Notes under the pieces: generated by a model
Databases searched by the model: none
Told to the model about the DNA's origin: nothing
What the model saw: the letters and a program-made list of their open reading frames with translations, nothing else
Shown: piece by piece, positions 15,404 to 59,956 of the stretch
How positions within the stretch are numbered: the first letter of the stretch is position 1
Layout: the number at the start of each line of letters is the position of its first letter
Source: Candidatus Zixiibacteriota bacterium
GTDB taxonomy: Bacteria; Zixibacteria; MSB-5A5; RBG-16-43-9
Length of the DNA: 64,000 bases
Direction: 5' to 3'
NCBI GenBank assembly: GCA_030692925.1
Contig: JAUYBY010000023.1
Coordinates: forward strand, 22,612-86,611
Position numbers and translations under genes: made by a program

Positions 15404-15710
15404 TGGTAAGTTGTAGTTGCCCAATTTATTGGGCATGTTTTTAGCTCGATAAATCGAGCAACTACATCTGAGGCAATGTAAAGTGGAACAGACATCTTGT
15501 CTGTTCTTTGAAGTCAGATAGGGATGTCGGCCCATCATTAGGGGAGGGTCGTCCTCACGGGAGTGAGGACGCTATAGCTTTGAAGTCTGCCAGATGGGTT
15601 CGGGAATTCCAATTCCCGAACCAACCTCAAAAATCACAAACGGATGGTAAGTTGTAGTTGCCCAATTTATTGGGCATGTTTTTAGCTCGATAAATCGAGC
15701 AACTACCCGT
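15404..15710. repeat. Composite (BIME-like) REP cluster: two 75-bp direct copies of the TGTAGTTG-CCCAAT../GCTCGATAAATCGAGC-AACTACA doublet flanking three other hairpins
   Basis: Doublets at 15412-15466 and 15653-15706; hairpins GTCGTCCTCACgggaGTGAGGACGC and GTTCGGGAATTccAATTCCCGAAC lie between them. Confidence 0.75.
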
Positions 15711-20334: not shown

Positions 20335-21144
20335 TTAAGTTTTTTTGGTAGAAATCCTCTGGTAGAAATTCCAGAGCTTGAAGTAATTATTAGGTCCTAA
20401 AATAGTCTTGAGAAAACTTAGGAAATTGTCCCTTAGTTTTTTTTTCAGATAGAGCTTTTTATGCTGATTCACTATGGAGACAAAATAAGAGAATGAGTCA
20501 CCAAATCGAAAAGAAATTCTCTTAAGCTCAAGAAGGTTAGTATAAATGTCATTCAAACCAAATCTGGAAGTGCAGATTCCTTTGTAGCCAAGCTCCCTGG
20601 CGATCTCTTTTACCTTTGGACTGTGATATCCACCAGGCAGACTCAAAAGATCGATTTTCTTCACGGTGATTTCCTCCAGCATTTTTTTTGATTCCTGAAG
20701 CTCCAGCTTCAATTCATTCTCATTCAGAGTCGACAGAAATTGATGAGTTTTGCCGTGCGTGCCGAACTCCATTCCTTCCTGGCTCATCCTGAGAATCTGA
20801 GATTTACTCAGATGACCGGGTTTCTCAATAAAATCGCTGGTCAAAAAGAAGATTGCTTTGTAGTCGAATTTGTTAAGCAGGGGAAAAGCTATGGTATAAT
20901 CGGTCTGGTTTCCGTCATCGAAGGAGATTATCAAATTCTTTTCCGGGAGAGAGGATTTATTCTTAGACGATTCCAATAACTGGCTCACTGAAATGGTGCT
21001 CCATCCACTGGAATGAAGATACTCTAATTGTTTTGCGAATTCTTCCTCCTTTAGAAGATAAACCTTATCTTCTGGGCTGTACTTTGACAGGTCATCTTCC
21101 TTAGATAAGATTCCGTGATAAAGAAGGATTAGCATTTTGTTCAA
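20335..21144 (-). CDS. Polysaccharide deacetylase (NodB-homology, PgaB/IcaB-like)
   Basis: FDDGNQTDY, THGKTHQFL and LLYHGI motifs; TTG or ATG start. Confidence 0.85.
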   Translation of the reverse strand: MNKMLILLYHGILSKEDDLSKYSPEDKVYLLKEEEFAKQLEYLHSSGWSTISVSQLLESSKNKSSLPEKNLIISFDDGNQTDYTIAFPLLNKFDYKAIFFLTSDFIEKPGHLSKSQILRMSQEGMEFGTHGKTHQFLSTLNENELKLELQESKKMLEEITVKKIDLLSLPGGYHSPKVKEIARELGYKGICTSRFGLNDIYTNLLELKRISFRFGDSFSYFVSIVNQHKKLYLKKKLRDNFLSFLKTILGPNNYFKLWNFYQRISTKKT

Positions 21145-21169
21145 GACTCTCCTCTTTACTAAAACTTTT

Positions 21170-21232
21170 GTGCGTGCCAGATCCCCTGACCTGGCATGCT
21201 TCCGGTCGGGTCAGGGGACCCGACCACCACAT
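21170..21232. repeat. About 65-bp double-hairpin element C (GCCAGATCCCCTGACCTGG...CGGGTCAGGGGACCCGACCACCACA), copy 1
   Basis: A second copy (about 80% identical) is at 46912-46977. Both copies are flanked by diverged duplications of adjacent gene termini. Confidence 0.7.
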
Positions 21233-21322
21233 CAACCTTATCTTCAGAGTTTATCTTTGAAAGATTCTCTTCCCTGGATAAGAGACGGTGATAAAGAAGA
21301 ATCAAGGTTTTGTTCAAATTTT

Positions 21323-22471
21323 TTACCTCTTGGATGGCTCCCAGATTATTTCTCTTTTTCCTGAGATAAATTTAACCCAGGCAAAAAGCAGGGCAAAGTT
21401 GATCAGATAAAAATAAAATATCGACTCGAAATAAGAAAAAATTCCTGCTGATTTTTTGTTATTCAAAAAAAGCCAGTGAATCAGAGCAATCAGAACAGTC
21501 AAAAGCTCAAATAGAAAAGTGAGTCTGAAAATCAGATGAGTGTGCAGCAGAAAAATACTGGTCAGGAACAAAAGCAAGAGCAAGAAAGGGGTAAGCCATC
21601 TCAACAGTTTATGGCTCAAAAGCTCCAGGCTGAAAATACCATACTTAAAGGGATTCAATAAAGAAAGCTCCGAGAAAAAGACCTCCAAGCCTCCTAAGGT
21701 GGTTCTTCGTCTTCTCCGGAACTCCTCTTTGAAATCAGTGACTTTAGTGACAAAGGCAGTTGCCTCAGGCTCTGAGACCACCCTTTTTCTTTTTTTCACA
21801 ACCTGAAGCGGAAGATAAAAATCGTCTATAAGATCGTTCGGTATCTCGTTTACAAGCTCTCTTCTGATGGCATAAAGGCACCCACTCACCCCGGTCAGGT
21901 TTCCGCTTTGACTTTCCAGCCTTCTTAATTTCATCTCCAGGCCAACATAAAGCCCTTCCCCGGATTCAGACTTTTCTGAAAAAGCAGAGATGCTCCGGTC
22001 TTCTCCGCTTACGCAGCCCACATCCGGATCAGCGAAATTTCTGGCTATGTTTCTCAAAGAGTTTTCGCTCAAAAAGGTAGAGGCATCTGTGAAAAAGACC
22101 AGCTCGGTCTGAACATCTTTCAAAGCCAGATTTAAAGCCCTGGTCTTTCCTCCCCTTTTTCCCGGTCTGATAAGTTTGACTCCCTGGTTCACAAATGATT
22201 GTGCGATCTCTTCAGTTCTGTCTGTGGATGAGTCAGAGATGACTATTATCCTTAATTTTTCCTGAGGATAATTAAGCCTGAGGCAATTCTCCAGCTTACC
22301 TCTGATCACCTTCTCACCATTATATACCGGGATAAGAAGAGTAGCTCCAGGAAGGTATTCTCCCTTTTGAACTGGGTTGGATCTGAGAAAAGATATGATT
22401 TTCAGGAGAAGAAAATATCCCGAATAGGTATAAAACAGCAGAAATAGTAAAATGATGAAAAAAATAATCAT
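21323..22471 (-). CDS. Family-2 glycosyltransferase, membrane-integrated (PgaC/NodC-like)
   Basis: N-terminal TM, GT-A motifs (VISDSSTDRT, FFTDAS), C-terminal TM helices with LRW motif. Confidence 0.8.
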   Translation of the reverse strand: MIIFFIILLFLLFYTYSGYFLLLKIISFLRSNPVQKGEYLPGATLLIPVYNGEKVIRGKLENCLRLNYPQEKLRIIVISDSSTDRTEEIAQSFVNQGVKLIRPGKRGGKTRALNLALKDVQTELVFFTDASTFLSENSLRNIARNFADPDVGCVSGEDRSISAFSEKSESGEGLYVGLEMKLRRLESQSGNLTGVSGCLYAIRRELVNEIPNDLIDDFYLPLQVVKKRKRVVSEPEATAFVTKVTDFKEEFRRRRRTTLGGLEVFFSELSLLNPFKYGIFSLELLSHKLLRWLTPFLLLLLFLTSIFLLHTHLIFRLTFLFELLTVLIALIHWLFLNNKKSAGIFSYFESIFYFYLINFALLFAWVKFISGKREIIWEPSKR

Positions 22472-25804: not shown

Positions 25805-26520
25805 GGTGTTTTTCAGTAGTCGCCCAATTCATTGAGCTTTTTTTATGCCTGATAAATCAGGCAACTACATACTCGATAGATCGAGCAACTACAGTTACAT
25901 ATTGTAGTTGCCCAATTCATTGGGCAATATTTTCTTCCAAACAATCCATAGACTATGATTCATAAAACTGACTGAATTTTATCTTCTCTTTCAACGGATT
26001 ATTTATAATATATTCCCTGATTTTAAGCAACGCTTTCTCGTTTCGAATTACATGTTCATAATAATTAGGTTGCCATAATCTTATTCCGGCTTCTTTACTG
26101 GTCAAAGACTTGAATCTTCTTACTATCTCGCCTAAACCGAGTTTAGATTCCTGCAATATAATAATCATATGTATATGTAAAGGTAATATAGAATAATAAT
26201 CAATATTAATGCCCTCGATTCCTTTTAACTCGTCTAAGGCAGTGCGAATTTCCCTGCTGAACTCTTCTAAATAAGGGCGTTGATAACTTGAACAAATGGT
26301 AACAAAATAGTAACCGTTTTGAGAGTAATCATAATGTTTTAATCTTATATTTTTTATCGACCTCATGATTTAACCCTTGCGGTATCCTACTTGTTGTGCT
26401 TTTTGCTCGATGAATCGAGCAACTACAGTCACATATTGTAGTTGCCCAATTCATTGGGCATCTTTTATACCTGATAAATCAGGCAACTACAGGCTCGATG
26501 AATCGAGCAACTACAATTCC
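25805..26520. mobile_element. RAYT (REP-associated tyrosine transposase) locus: IS200/IS605-like Y1 transposase gene flanked on both sides by REP arrays
   Basis: REP units on both flanks share CAACTACA-gtYacatat-TGTAGTTG inverted heads: left flank 25821-25926, right flank 26405-26515. Confidence 0.75.
25953..26366 (-). CDS. tnpA: IS200/IS605-family Y1 (HuH) transposase, RAYT type
   Basis: HuH motif LHIHMII and the C-terminal LWQPNYYEHVIRNE motif (catalytic Tyr); 137 aa. Confidence 0.8.
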   Translation of the reverse strand: MRSIKNIRLKHYDYSQNGYYFVTICSSYQRPYLEEFSREIRTALDELKGIEGINIDYYSILPLHIHMIIILQESKLGLGEIVRRFKSLTSKEAGIRLWQPNYYEHVIRNEKALLKIREYIINNPLKEKIKFSQFYES

Positions 26521-27486
26521 TCAGAGGAGATTCGGAGCGTTCTGGTTCAGATGAATCGAGGCTTTCCTTTTCTGGTCAAAATCCCGATAGGCTCTTATTA
26601 TCTGTTCCTCTGAAAGGTTTAATACCTGACTTACCTTTGAAAGAGGGATTTTGTTCTCCTGAGCATACAAGAGTAAGTCCAACAGGTCATAAGGCATACA
26701 GAAGAAAAACTCCTGATCTGATACTACTGCAGAGAAGGTGTCCGGGCTGGGAACTCGCTTGATTATCTCCTCCGGGATGTCCAGAAATTTAGCTAGCTGG
26801 TATACCTGAGTCTTATAAAGATGAGCAATCGGCTCCAGATCAACTCCTCCATCCCCAAATTTCACGTAAAAACCCTGAGCATATTCACTTAAATTAGTGG
26901 TGCCGATGACCATATAGTTATATTTTTCAGCATAATAATAAAGCTGGATCATCCGGCTTCTCTGTTTCATATCCGTTGCTGCCACAATCCCCAAAAGCCC
27001 TTCTTTGGAAAGGCGAAAACTTTTCTCCTCTCCTTTGGGACTGATCATCTTCAAGCTGAAATAATTAATCCGGTCCCTTTCTAATAAGTCCTGGGGAAGC
27101 CCAATTTTTATTTTATAGGAACTGTCATAAGCGGGGGAAATCTTTTTAATTACCTCGTCTCTCTTTTTATAACATCCCAGACTTTCCATGGCTTGGGTCA
27201 GGTCGACTTTTTCGGTTCTTATGCCCAGTTTCTTAGCTAAAAGCTCTCCATAGGTTAAGCTTATCGGATTCGATTCTTTTTCCGGCAAAAAGACACCTAA
27301 AACCTTATCCTTGCCCAAAGCCCTGACCGATAAAGCAGCAGTTAGAGCTGAGTCTATGCCTCCGCTTATTCCCACCACCGCACCCTCTCTTCTGAAATGC
27401 GTAAAAACCTGTTCTTTTATGAATTCACAAATCCTTTCGCATTCTTTCTCAGAATTTATATCCAGGATATTTTTGTGAAAGTCCAT
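26521..27486 (-). CDS. nadE: NH3-dependent NAD+ synthetase NadE
   Basis: PP-loop GISGGIDSAL, and VIGTTNLSEYAQGFYVKFGDGGVDLEPIAHLYKTQVYQLAKFL matches the NadE core. Confidence 0.75.
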   Translation of the reverse strand: MDFHKNILDINSEKECERICEFIKEQVFTHFRREGAVVGISGGIDSALTAALSVRALGKDKVLGVFLPEKESNPISLTYGELLAKKLGIRTEKVDLTQAMESLGCYKKRDEVIKKISPAYDSSYKIKIGLPQDLLERDRINYFSLKMISPKGEEKSFRLSKEGLLGIVAATDMKQRSRMIQLYYYAEKYNYMVIGTTNLSEYAQGFYVKFGDGGVDLEPIAHLYKTQVYQLAKFLDIPEEIIKRVPSPDTFSAVVSDQEFFFCMPYDLLDLLLYAQENKIPLSKVSQVLNLSEEQIIRAYRDFDQKRKASIHLNQNAPNLL

Positions 27487-46502: not shown

Positions 46503-46883
46503 ATGAGCCATGGTTTTAAAAACAAGAAAGTTCTGATCGTAGAAGATAATCCCAATATGTCCAGTCTTCTGGCGGATATCCTGTTGCAATGTTTTGACCT
46601 CAAGAGTGAAAAAGCAAAAGATGGACAGGAGGCTTTAGATATTTTAAAAGACGAGGCCTTTGACCTGGTGATAACTGATTTGATGATGCCTAAGATAGAT
46701 GGGAAAGAACTCTTAAAGACTGTGAAGCAGAATTTCCCTAAACTTCCAGTGGTTCTTATAACCGGCTACGAAGCAGAATTTAATCCGGAAGAGGAACCCA
46801 GACCTGACGGATTTCTGCTGAAGCCTTTCAAAGTGCAGCAGATTGAGGAGCTTCTAAGGAATCTCCAAAATCCTAAAAGATAG
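46503..46883 (+). CDS. Single-domain CheY-like response regulator
   Basis: VLIVEDNPNM...DLMMPKIDG...KLPVVLITGY. Confidence 0.8.
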   Translation: MSHGFKNKKVLIVEDNPNMSSLLADILLQCFDLKSEKAKDGQEALDILKDEAFDLVITDLMMPKIDGKELLKTVKQNFPKLPVVLITGYEAEFNPEEEPRPDGFLLKPFKVQQIEELLRNLQNPKR

Positions 46884-46911
46884 TTTACTTCAAATCCTCT
46901 AAGATTTTCCG

Positions 46912-46977
46912 GTGCTTGCCAGGTCCCTTGACCTGGTTCGCCATTGGCGAATCGGGTCGGGGGACCTGACGACCACA
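46912..46977. repeat. Double-hairpin element C, copy 2
   Basis: GCCAGGTCCCTTGACCTGG...CGGGTCGGGGGACCTGACGACCACA; flanked by two 45-bp copies (84% identical) of the response-regulator 3' end. Confidence 0.7.
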
Positions 46978-47039
46978 TAAAATTGACGAGCTTCTGAAAA
47001 ATCTTCAAAATCCTAAAAGATAGTAGAATAAGAAATGTT

Positions 47040-47320
47040 TGAAAGGTCTATTTCGCAGGGCTGTTCCGCCTGAAGCATTGTATGTGTGAGTTCTTCGTAT
47101 TCCCCTCCCTTGATGGCCGTTAAAAGCTTTACGGCTCGTAGAGGAGGGGTAAGGGGAGGGTGAATTGTCTTTTTTTGTCTTCCCCCTCACCCTCTCCCAC
47201 AAGCCGATAAAAGCATTACGGTGGCTGCGCCCTTCGCTCCTCGTAGAGGGAAGAGGGAAACTATTTTGTGAGTCCGGCACCTGTGCCCGACTTTTCCCTC
47301 TTTAATTCTTGAGAGATGTC
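47040..47320. repeat. Cluster of GC-rich hairpin repeats (two about 60-nt units CCCCTCCC..GCCGtTAAAAGCtTTACGG..CTCGTAGAGG..GGGGAGGG, plus GTCCGGCACCTGTGCCCGAC)
   Basis: ORF 47005..47280 lies entirely within these repeats and is probably spurious. Confidence 0.6.
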
Positions 47321-47321
47321 C

Positions 47322-47780
47322 TTACTTTAAATCCTCCAAAATCTTTAAAAGCTCGCTGTTTTCCCTCTGCTGGGGGATATCATAAACCTGAACGTACCGA
47401 ACAGTCCCTTCTTTATCTATTATGACCGTTGCCCGGTTGGTTATCCCCAGATCGGAAAGATATAAGCCGTACTTGGAGGCAACTGCTCCTTTTGGGTGAA
47501 AATCAGATAAAAGAGGATATTTGATCTGAAGCTTTTCCGCAAAGGCTTTGTGGGACCAGATATTGTCAACGCTGATTCCAAAGACCTGGGCATTCAGATT
47601 CTCAAATCTTTTCAGGTCGTTGACAAAACAGGTATTCTCCTTTGAACAGACCGGGCTGAAATCCGCCACATAAAAGGCTAAGACGATATTTTTACCTTTG
47701 AAATCTGATAACTTGTATTCCTTATCATCATGCCCCTTCAACATAAAATCCGGAGCTTTCTCACCTGGTTTTATGGGCAT
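47322..47780 (-). CDS. Peroxiredoxin (AhpC/TSA family, Bcp/PrxQ-like)
   Basis: [13 protein letters not shown] peroxidatic-Cys motif; 152 aa. Confidence 0.85.
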
Positions 47781-59486: not shown

Positions 59487-59573
59487 AGGTTATCCTTTTG
59501 ATTGCTTTTTCTTCAGACCTGAAAGGAGTATCACGGATTCTACTCGGGAGATTAAAAATAACATTCAAAAAAC

Positions 59574-59956
59574 TGGAGGCGGTGGGAATCGAACCCACGT
59601 CCGAAGATAAGAACTAAAGGACTTCTACAGGCTTAGCTTAGTCTTTTTTCCTTCCCGCTTTTGGCAGGAGGGACTTTCGCTCCAGGAAAGACCGACAAGC
59701 AGGTCTAACCCAGAACTATCCCGGTTTTGTTTCGCCCTCTTCCCCCAGGAGATAGAAGAAGGCTATCCTGTTTTTCTCGACGCCTTAGCCCAAACCAACA
59801 GGCAGGCTCAGGTAAGACGAGCTACCTTTTATTAGGCAGCCAATGCATACGAGTATTCGTTTGCATTTAGATTTGTTCCCAATGGATTAACGAGGTTACT
59901 GGGTACCTCGGCCTGCTTTCCTTTACCCTTGATCCCCGTCGAAACCGATCGCCCCC
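59574..59956 (-). ncRNA. ssrA: tmRNA (ssrA), tag peptide (A)ANEYSYALAA
   Basis: 5' end GGGGGCGAUCGGUUUCGACGGGGAUCAAGGG and 3' end GGACGUGGGUUCGAUUCCCACCGCCUCCA (tRNA-Ala-like T-arm and acceptor). Tag ORF GCAAACGAAUACUCGUAUGCAUUGGCUGCCUAAUAA. CCA is not encoded. Confidence 0.9.

Follow-up and report, generated by a model that had tools for sequence, protein, structure and literature searches.

We analysed 64,000 nucleotides (nt) of DNA from a Candidatus Zixiibacteriota bacterium (contig JAUYBY010000023.1, positions 22,612 to 86,611, assembly GCA_030692925.1), hereafter the window, and find that both of its copies of a short palindromic repeat, element C, stand between two diverged copies of a gene junction. 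The element belongs to the REPINs, in which two repetitive extragenic palindromic (REP) hairpins are paired in inverted orientation, and its cognate REP-associated tyrosine transposase (RAYT) is encoded in related metagenome-assembled genomes (MAGs). At each of the two loci a gene end is present twice, once in the working gene and once as a displaced stub across the element. This is a real, recurrent structure around a known class of mobile element. In the literature searched we found no description of REPINs in Zixibacteria or Ignavibacteria, and no earlier description of the layout in which a single element separates flank copies and the neighbouring gene ends are restored.

At locus 1, which lies between a GT2 glycosyltransferase gene and a polysaccharide deacetylase gene, positions 21058–21144 recur at 21231–21317 over 87 nt, free of gaps and at 76% identity, and an inverted repeat (21169–21231) that forms a 61-nt hairpin sits inside this direct repeat (Table 1). 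An earlier note on this DNA had described copies of the deacetylase start of about 85 bp and about 75% identity around the element, and the alignment confirms them. Its details of the two starts hold as well: the displaced copy has a TTG start 6 nt past the GT2 stop, AGAGG lies 8 nt upstream of this TTG, ACC replaces the functional ATG, and the frame continues into the element. The working gene starts at TTG 21144, or at ATG 21135 according to the gene call on L078 (L numbers denote the related stretches of DNA used for comparison). Copy 1 of the element opens with the head GTGCG; hairpin A (TGCCAGATC/GACCTGGCA) and then hairpin B (GGTCGGGTC/GACCCGACC) follow, and a closing CAC and the tail ATCAA complete it. 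The 25-nt spacer between the working gene and the element, present also in L079 and L174, probably derives by decay from a copy of the junction and the GT2 3′ end. Its similarity within the window is weak, and its undecayed counterpart is seen in L086, where the duplication also included approximately the last 22 nt of GT2 and the deacetylase side of the element reads CTGGGAGTCATCTAAAAGGTAA, which duplicates the 3′ end of GT2, CTGGGAGCCATCCAAGAGGTGA. The unit demonstrable in the window measures 87 nt; the full unit probably spanned about 112–115 nt. The locus is identical in the independent Logan assembly L078, and the stub, element and spacer are all unchanged in JGI contig L105, from a strain 3% divergent overall, which together rule out an assembly artefact.

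Locus 2 lies between genes for a CheY-like response regulator (RR) and a peroxiredoxin. Here a second, related inverted repeat (46912–46976) is bracketed by a direct repeat of 43 nt and 88% identity (46842–46884 and 46982–47024). The earlier note had recognised the repeat around this second element; the unit is longer than it claimed. When the 28-nt spacer (46884–46911) is compared with the whole window on both strands, its best match is 47321–47348 (20/28), the 3′ end of the peroxiredoxin gene, and the duplicated unit is therefore about 70 nt long. Joining the displaced RR end to the end of the peroxiredoxin gene gives a sequence that is about 86% identical to the left unit along some 70 nt. 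The element is thus flanked on each side by a complete copy of a unit that spans the junction. On the left, the copy ends the RR gene and holds a dead peroxiredoxin end; on the right, it ends the peroxiredoxin gene and holds a dead RR end. In the window, the right copy was later split by about 300 nt of other repeats. Within these palindromic repeats (47025–47321), arms CCCCTCCC...GGGGAGGG enclose TAAAAGCTTTACGG, to give one example.

The original junctions are preserved in related genomes that lack the element, and such empty sites were found for both loci. For locus 1, the relatives are the contigs of deacetylase orthologues. In L090 and L173 the GT2 stop (TGA or TAA) is separated by 5 nt from the TTG of the deacetylase gene, and in L093 the gap is 25 nt. 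Across GT2 and the displaced copy, the window runs collinear with the empty site as far as about nt 84 of the deacetylase gene, where the element starts. For locus 2, the RR gene of L098 is 96–99% identical and its TAG is followed after 6 nt by the stop of the convergent peroxiredoxin gene; across relatives, 1–6 nt separate the two stops. The empty sites hold one copy of the junction-spanning unit. A further arrangement at locus 2 occurs in L096, where a half element has one RR-tail allele on its left and, on its right, a stub of the other allele that has been shortened.

Table 1 Features of the window at the two element C loci, with the RAYT-like gene of the window
Feature	Position	Strand	Remarks
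Polysaccharide deacetylase gene	20335–21144	−	PF01522 (Pfam, on the identical gene in L078)
Left repeat copy, locus 1	21058–21144		Working deacetylase 5′ end, read on the minus strand
25-nt spacer, locus 1	21145–21169	−	Holds the deacetylase ribosome-binding site AAAGAGGAGAG (minus strand)
52-codon open reading frame (ORF)	21159–21317	−	From the displaced TTG through the element to a TAG 14 nt ahead of the deacetylase start; predicted ORF only
Element C copy 1 (REPIN)	21170–21235	+	Core 21170–21230 (GTGCG...CCACCAC) and 5-nt tail ATCAA
Displaced deacetylase 5′ end (right copy)	21231–21317		Collinear with element-free relatives from the GT2 stop to deacetylase nt ~84
GT2 glycosyltransferase gene	21323–22471	−	Stop 6 nt ahead of the displaced TTG
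RAYT-like gene of the window	25953–26366	−	Pfam Y1_Tnp 29.7 bits; NF047646 71.5 bits, under the cut-off of 80
CheY-like RR gene	46503–46883	+	Last ~45–60 nt hypervariable among genes otherwise 97–99% identical
Left copy of the ~70-nt unit, locus 2	46842–46911		Working RR 3′ end (46842–46883) and dead peroxiredoxin 3′-end copy (46884–46911)
Element C copy 2 (REPIN)	46912–46981	+	Extra central hairpin TTCGCC ATT GGCGAA, then tail ATAAA
Displaced RR 3′ end with stop codon (IDELLKNLQNPKR*)	46982–47024		Locus-2 direct repeat
Other GC-rich palindromic repeats, inserted later	47025–47321		Separate the right-hand unit from the peroxiredoxin gene end; missing in L096 and L098
Peroxiredoxin (AhpC/TSA) gene	47322–47780	−	PF00578 in orthologues; 3′ end 47322–47348 is the original of the 27-nt copy left of the element

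Element C occurs in many copies, mostly extragenic, two of which fall within the window. Its two signatures of 20–23 nt, TGCCAGNTCCCNTGACCTGG and GGGTCNGGGGACCNGACNACCAC, are found in the window at loci 1 and 2 alone, on the plus strand (0.00–0.01 expected by chance). A scan of one genome per species returned 77 stretches with the signature, mostly from MAGs labelled Zixibacteria or Ignavibacteria and often with at least 8 loci per genome by a strict 20-mer match (for example OY970208.1, MEWM01 and CAZEDM01). A metagenome scan added 72 further stretches, and the combined scans yield 91 non-redundant full-length copies. Their consensus reads TTTTCT GTGCY TGCCAGGTC CCCT GACCTGGCA – variable linker – CGTCGGGTC AGGG GACCCGACG RNCAC ATAAA. 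The element therefore consists of two hairpins, the second an inverted form of the first, with complementary cores GGTCCCCTGACC and GGTCAGGGGACC and GTG at the head of each. As single-stranded DNA, the copies of the window fold as two hairpins or as one long hairpin (−20.1 kcal/mol and z = −4.3 for copy 1, −21.9 kcal/mol and z = −5.3 for copy 2). The earlier view of a mobile hairpin repeat is supported. The direct sign of movement is the presence or absence of the element among relatives, and mobilisation by a RAYT is putative.

In L013, L026 and L039, both REP types of element C flank a gene for a Y1 transposase of 184 amino acids on each side. The L026 protein matches Pfam Y1_Tnp as well as the NCBIfam model for REP-associated tyrosine transposases, NF047646, at 100.8 bits (cut-off 80). 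A protein 91% identical to the element-C-associated RAYT comes from a MAG labelled Zixibacteria, and JGI calls several relatives RayT. Because its hairpins are paired and inverted and the same REPs surround a RAYT gene, we class element C as a REPIN. The earlier description as an element like a MITE (a transposable element of the miniature inverted-repeat kind) does not survive this association of its REP halves with Y1/HUH genes in related MAGs. A MITE of a DDE transposon was also rejected on the target repeats, which have no fixed length (absent from about 80–85% of copies, 33–115 nt in the others). The REP half around the RAYT genes (L026 880–950 and 1510–1600; L039; L013) begins CGTCGGG. 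CGTC-tagged REPs were reported in a 2013 survey without a RAYT flanked by them (PMC3733652).

Other identities were considered for the element. An intrinsic terminator is not supported, as 20900–21500 contains no terminator-like site and the T run precedes the element, with none after the hairpin. Nor are the halves the ends of a full-length insertion sequence, since L067 and L073 hold merely an isolated half element between ordinary genes. At the gathering threshold, Rfam returned for the window a transfer-messenger RNA (tmRNA) alone, located elsewhere, and a permissive Rfam search over element C gave E ≥ 0.26 with scores far under gathering.

The flank duplications recur well beyond the window. 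The 300 nt ahead of each element copy were aligned to the sequence after it, with flanks paired from different loci as the control. Nine of the 62 copies in the genome set score 48–137, where the 99th percentile of the control is 46. In the metagenome set, 4 of 57 non-redundant copies reach 69–172 (99.9th percentile of the control, 66) and several more reach 33–47 (99th percentile, 33). An anchored test, which used the first 45 nt past the element alone, shows that the right copy starts 0–6 nt past the element end in the clear cases. High-scoring copies were then inspected by eye, cases due to other repeat families (L165 and L153) were removed and orthologous loci were merged. This leaves at least 11 independent loci with a duplication of 33–115 nt adjoining element C: locus 1 of the window (the same as the L105 locus), locus 2 of the window, the locus common to L059, L074 and L046, L007/L015, L070 (73/76 identical), L112 (106 nt, 98/106 identical), L172 (62 nt), L116 (68 nt), L143 (36 nt) and two in L107 (33 and 35 nt). 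Weaker candidates are present in L036 and L023. At most of the other duplicated loci that were checked, the duplicated unit overlaps the end of an ORF. Two layouts are seen, either a single element between the flank copies (about 9 loci) or arrays in which element and flank are repeated two to three times (about 4 loci, among them L112, L070 and L007/L015), some of which keep a half element at the outer end.

These counts bear on whether the two window loci might be a coincidence, namely two unrelated small tandem duplications, or assembly errors, beside a repeat. Most element copies lack a flank repeat, as such a coincidence would predict. At least 11 independent loci nevertheless carry one, control pairs reach their scores in less than 1% of cases (less than 0.1% for the strongest), and the locus-1 structure is identical in three assemblies and present in the second strain, L105. 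Coincidence or artefact is thus extremely improbable, and the controls effectively refute it. The earlier note had proposed that insertion goes together with long flank duplication. The pattern does recur far above the controls; it is not regular, as about 80–85% of copies show no flank repeat, lengths range from 33 to 115 nt and several cases are tandem arrays of element plus flank. The possibility that other copies would lack flank duplications, which the note had raised, is realised for most of them, alongside a strong enrichment over mismatched-flank controls. Its suggestion that the element captures flanking sequence is not supported.

Our leading reading, held tentatively and at somewhat under an even chance, is that the arrival of the element and the duplication of its target are one event, with a target duplication that is long and variable, followed by recombination and decay. 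The element lies where two genes originally met at a very tight junction, and the duplicated unit spans that junction, so that one copy completes the left gene and the other copy completes the right gene. The halves that neither gene uses persist next to the element, one on each flank, as dead gene ends. Such an event could proceed by widely staggered breaks on opposite strands, 33–115 nt apart, that are then filled in. Alternatively, a nascent strand might switch template onto a copy of the element and return upstream of its exit point. Junctions in L172 and L116 carry 6–18 nt of filler, ATAAA at locus 1 matches the tail, and many left copies end in a T run (TTT) that matches the 5′ tail of the element, TTTTCT; the filler and short matches would fit template switching. 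Later reshaping, in which the loci recombined with alleles of other lineages, lost sequence within or between the copies and took up more repeats, would account for copies that are now 76–88% identical and for the shorter remnants in relatives. That RAYT-driven movement of the REPIN can itself create or re-create long variable duplications (33–115 nt), via staggered cleavage or via end transfer and re-priming, is a narrower proposition that we regard as rather unlikely.

At locus 2 a single element marks the boundary between complete copies, with the dead peroxiredoxin end on its left and the dead RR end on its right. Routes in two steps would be expected to pass through a state in which a gene is disrupted. 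A duplication that was already there and was later struck by the element was rejected, since the element would be expected to land at random in the 70-nt dead zone and not at the copy boundary every time. The chief alternative places the duplication after the insertion. A resident REPIN would promote tandem duplication of element plus flank, and one copy of the element would then be lost. RAYT nicking could be the cause, or else the hairpin or a T-run microhomology could give rise to slippage or to unequal sister exchange. Such a course is well matched by the youngest cases, which are arrays: L112 has a half element and a 106-nt unit, then a full element and a second copy of the unit at 92% identity, and L070 and L007/L015 are similar. 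Half elements stand where this scheme expects them (L096 and L112), and the TTT of the left copies and the TTTTCT tail of the element offer microhomology. Tandem REPIN repeats with flanking sequence are also on record (PMC3116915) and have been called unexplained (PMC3337134), and the element at locus 1 is older than its displaced copy looks. The scheme fails to fit the loci of the window in two respects. Its intermediate with two elements would put an element inside the GT2, deacetylase, RR or peroxiredoxin gene, and duplication at an element (E) seated between two stops gives the order X-E-A-X-E-A, whereas X-A-E-X-A is observed. Single-element loci also exceed arrays, by about 9 to 4. We consider duplication after insertion somewhat unlikely and favour the coupled event, because the two-element route disrupts a gene and duplication at an element seated between the two stops gives the wrong order of parts.

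Comparison with orthologues shows that both loci have changed since the element arrived. At locus 1 the element is common to the window, L079, L085, L086, L087, L174 and L089, and because the GT2 genes of these lineages are merely 80–96% identical to that of the window, its presence there is old. At about 82% GT2 identity, lineages are either occupied (L089) or empty (L090 and L173). The peptide of the displaced stub, LNKTLILLYHRLLSREENLSKINSEDKV, is the consensus N-terminus of most orthologues. The stub is 81–90% identical to most lineages and 71% identical to the most distant, L093. It differs from the working copies of L085/L086 at 11 nt, of which 8–9 fall at third codon positions and which change 2 amino acids, and it is no more distant from the outgroup L090 than those working copies are. 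The differences within the window pair (7/4/10 by codon position) are uninformative without orthologues. It is the working copy that stands apart. Its 5′ ~250 nt (20900–21144) are 71–80% identical to all other lineages, against 90–96% for the flanking glycosyltransferase genes, and this divergent allele is common to the window and its closest relatives only (L079). Across its first 84 nt, no other lineage comes closer than the distant L093 (17 differences, 80%). This 5′ segment is probably an imported, horizontally acquired allele. The idea that the identity of about 75% reflects slow decay of the displaced copy is hence overturned, as the displaced copy holds the orthologue consensus and the functional copy is the outlier.

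Identity also shifts along the locus between close relatives. L079 matches the window at 97–98% in the element and the 5′ part of the deacetylase gene and at about 94% in GT2, and L105 differs by 0–1% in the structure and GT2 and by 7% over the remainder of the deacetylase gene. In L079, L085, L086 and L087, the GT2 stop and the element are separated by 35 nt that align with the displaced copy at a borderline z of 1.7–4.1, with none for L089; these 35 nt may be what a deletion left of an older stub. Genes for the RR that are otherwise 97–99% identical agree at about 70% in their last ~60 nt, which fall into distinct tail alleles at locus 2. The C-terminal ~13 residues (window 46820–46883 and orthologues) take the forms RNLQNPKR, KRIPDFQR and KRLPKF, which suggests that the RR gene end beside the element has been remodelled repeatedly. 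Relatives further carry half elements and shortened stubs. On these sequence comparisons, both loci are recombinational mosaics, in which foreign alleles, deletion and further insertions have each had a part. A dead stub can be overwritten by recombination because it is contiguous with a live gene. The 76% is the distance between two alleles and no measure of the time since duplication.

The same observations lend weight to an origin by allelic recombination, in which foreign DNA with the element and its own version of the gene would enter by homology at one end and by an illegitimate joint at the element, and the resident stub would be left behind. The consensus N-terminus in the stub, the outlying 5′ ~250 nt of the working gene beside much closer glycosyltransferase genes, the shifts of identity in L079 and L105 and the distinct RR tails would all follow. 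A one-sided import cannot, however, make the dead peroxiredoxin-end copy at locus 2 or the GT2-end copy in L086, and it needs an illegitimate joint within about 5 nt of the element end at every locus. We rate allelic recombination as a real modifier of both loci, with a clear contribution at locus 1, and not as the origin of the layout, for which we hold it to be quite unlikely.

Several points weigh against the coupled event. To our knowledge, transposition of the IS200/IS605 Y1 type, the accepted model for RAYTs, produces no target duplication. The most identical duplications (L112, L070 and L007) are arrays of two element-plus-flank units or show half an element beyond the left copy, which fits plain tandem duplication at a resident element. 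With about 80–85% of copies free of any flank repeat, duplication is at most an occasional outcome of insertion, or else it decays fast. Some copies without duplication also sit in tight intergenic gaps, and gaps have been inflated by later repeat insertions, so a comparison of gaps does not separate duplicated from non-duplicated copies. The RAYT-like gene of the window itself (25953–26366) is 20% identical to the cognate type and has on both sides a different, GTAG-type REP family starting GTAGTTGC (25840–26560). Finally, locus 1 combines an old element with a coding stub that looks fresh. For this to fit a coupled event, the stub must have been renewed by recombination, or a later event must have taken place at the same element.

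Element C shares with the REPIN–RAYT systems of P. fluorescens SBW25, and with the REP sequences and bacterial interspersed mosaic elements of E. coli and their RayT, two inverted REP hairpins, a conserved head, a multi-copy and mostly extragenic distribution and a RAYT flanked by the repeats. Its head is GTGC in place of the classical GTAG, with one half that begins CGTC, and its hosts, Zixibacteria and Ignavibacteria, belong to different phyla from the classical REPIN hosts. A sizeable minority of element C copies is bracketed by long gene-end duplications, for which we found no counterpart among REPIN descriptions in the literature searched. The closest are ordered tandem clusters of REPINs with flanking sequence in P. 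fluorescens SBW25 (Bertels and Rainey 2011, PMC3116915), an arrangement later described as unexplained (PMC3337134). L007/L015, L070 and L112 resemble these in the local duplication of a REPIN with adjacent unique sequence. By contrast, the window loci and most others duplicate the flank alone, with a single REPIN between the copies and the gene junction preserved.

Long direct repeats of the target, variable in length, are also known from IS1634 and from IS1549 of the IS1634 family (8–514 bp, reported without a mechanistic model; PMC2266710). Those insertion sequences are 1.5–2 kb long and encode a DDE transposase, whereas element C measures about 65 nt, is associated with a Y1/HUH enzyme and is repeat-free in most copies. 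Integrative elements that form attL/attR at the ends of tRNA, tmRNA or protein genes likewise keep the target gene intact by means of a diverged duplicate of its end. Element C differs from them in that merely ~65–90 nt lie between its repeats, on which ground att sites were rejected, in that there is no integrase and in that one duplication repairs both neighbours. The 52-codon frame that crosses the palindromic element recalls insertions in reading frames by Rickettsia palindromic elements and intragenic REPs (PMC3733652); here the frame is a leftover stub and apparently no working protein with an inserted peptide. A diversity-generating retroelement was rejected, as the mismatches (20–21 at locus 1, 5 at locus 2) span all base types and are not adenine-specific.

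The loci with a single REPIN between junction copies, together with their empty and decayed forms, give concrete predictions on how REPINs are copied. If RAYT-driven movement does create the duplications, these would be the first sequence footprint of REPIN insertion, and the ends of REPINs would be places where genes have their ends duplicated, exchanged among lineages and reshaped. This would account for the hypervariable RR tail and the foreign 5′ end of the deacetylase gene. Coupled duplication by a Y1 transposase would be new behaviour, or a side effect of replication, because IS200/IS605-type Y1 transposases insert without target duplication. The two loci also show how a mobile element may enter a junction with no spare DNA and kill neither gene, and the stubs recombine with other alleles and can supply new gene ends. 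For annotation, such stubs yield spurious small ORFs, and their percent identity is unsuitable as an age.

Three further observations concern the repeats. The RAYT-like gene of the window and the REP clusters on both sides of it look like a separate, second REP/RAYT system of this genome; REP copies of the GTAGTTGC type are also found in the window away from that gene, at 2490 and 15413–15700. L059, L074 and L046 represent one locus in three genomes, bounded by the 3′ end of a Clp/Hsp100-like gene and by a ribosomal protein L27-like gene (both recognised by eye), where a 58-nt duplication brackets differing mixes of hairpin elements; more repeats appear to use the interval between the copies as a landing pad. 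In L015 (~1650–1790) and L007 (minus strand, ~510–1100), a copy of element C is interrupted within its second hairpin by a small element with inverted ends GACCGAGAA...TTCTCGGTC. The tmRNA gene detected by Rfam lies at 59571–59956 on the minus strand (RF00023, 201 bits).

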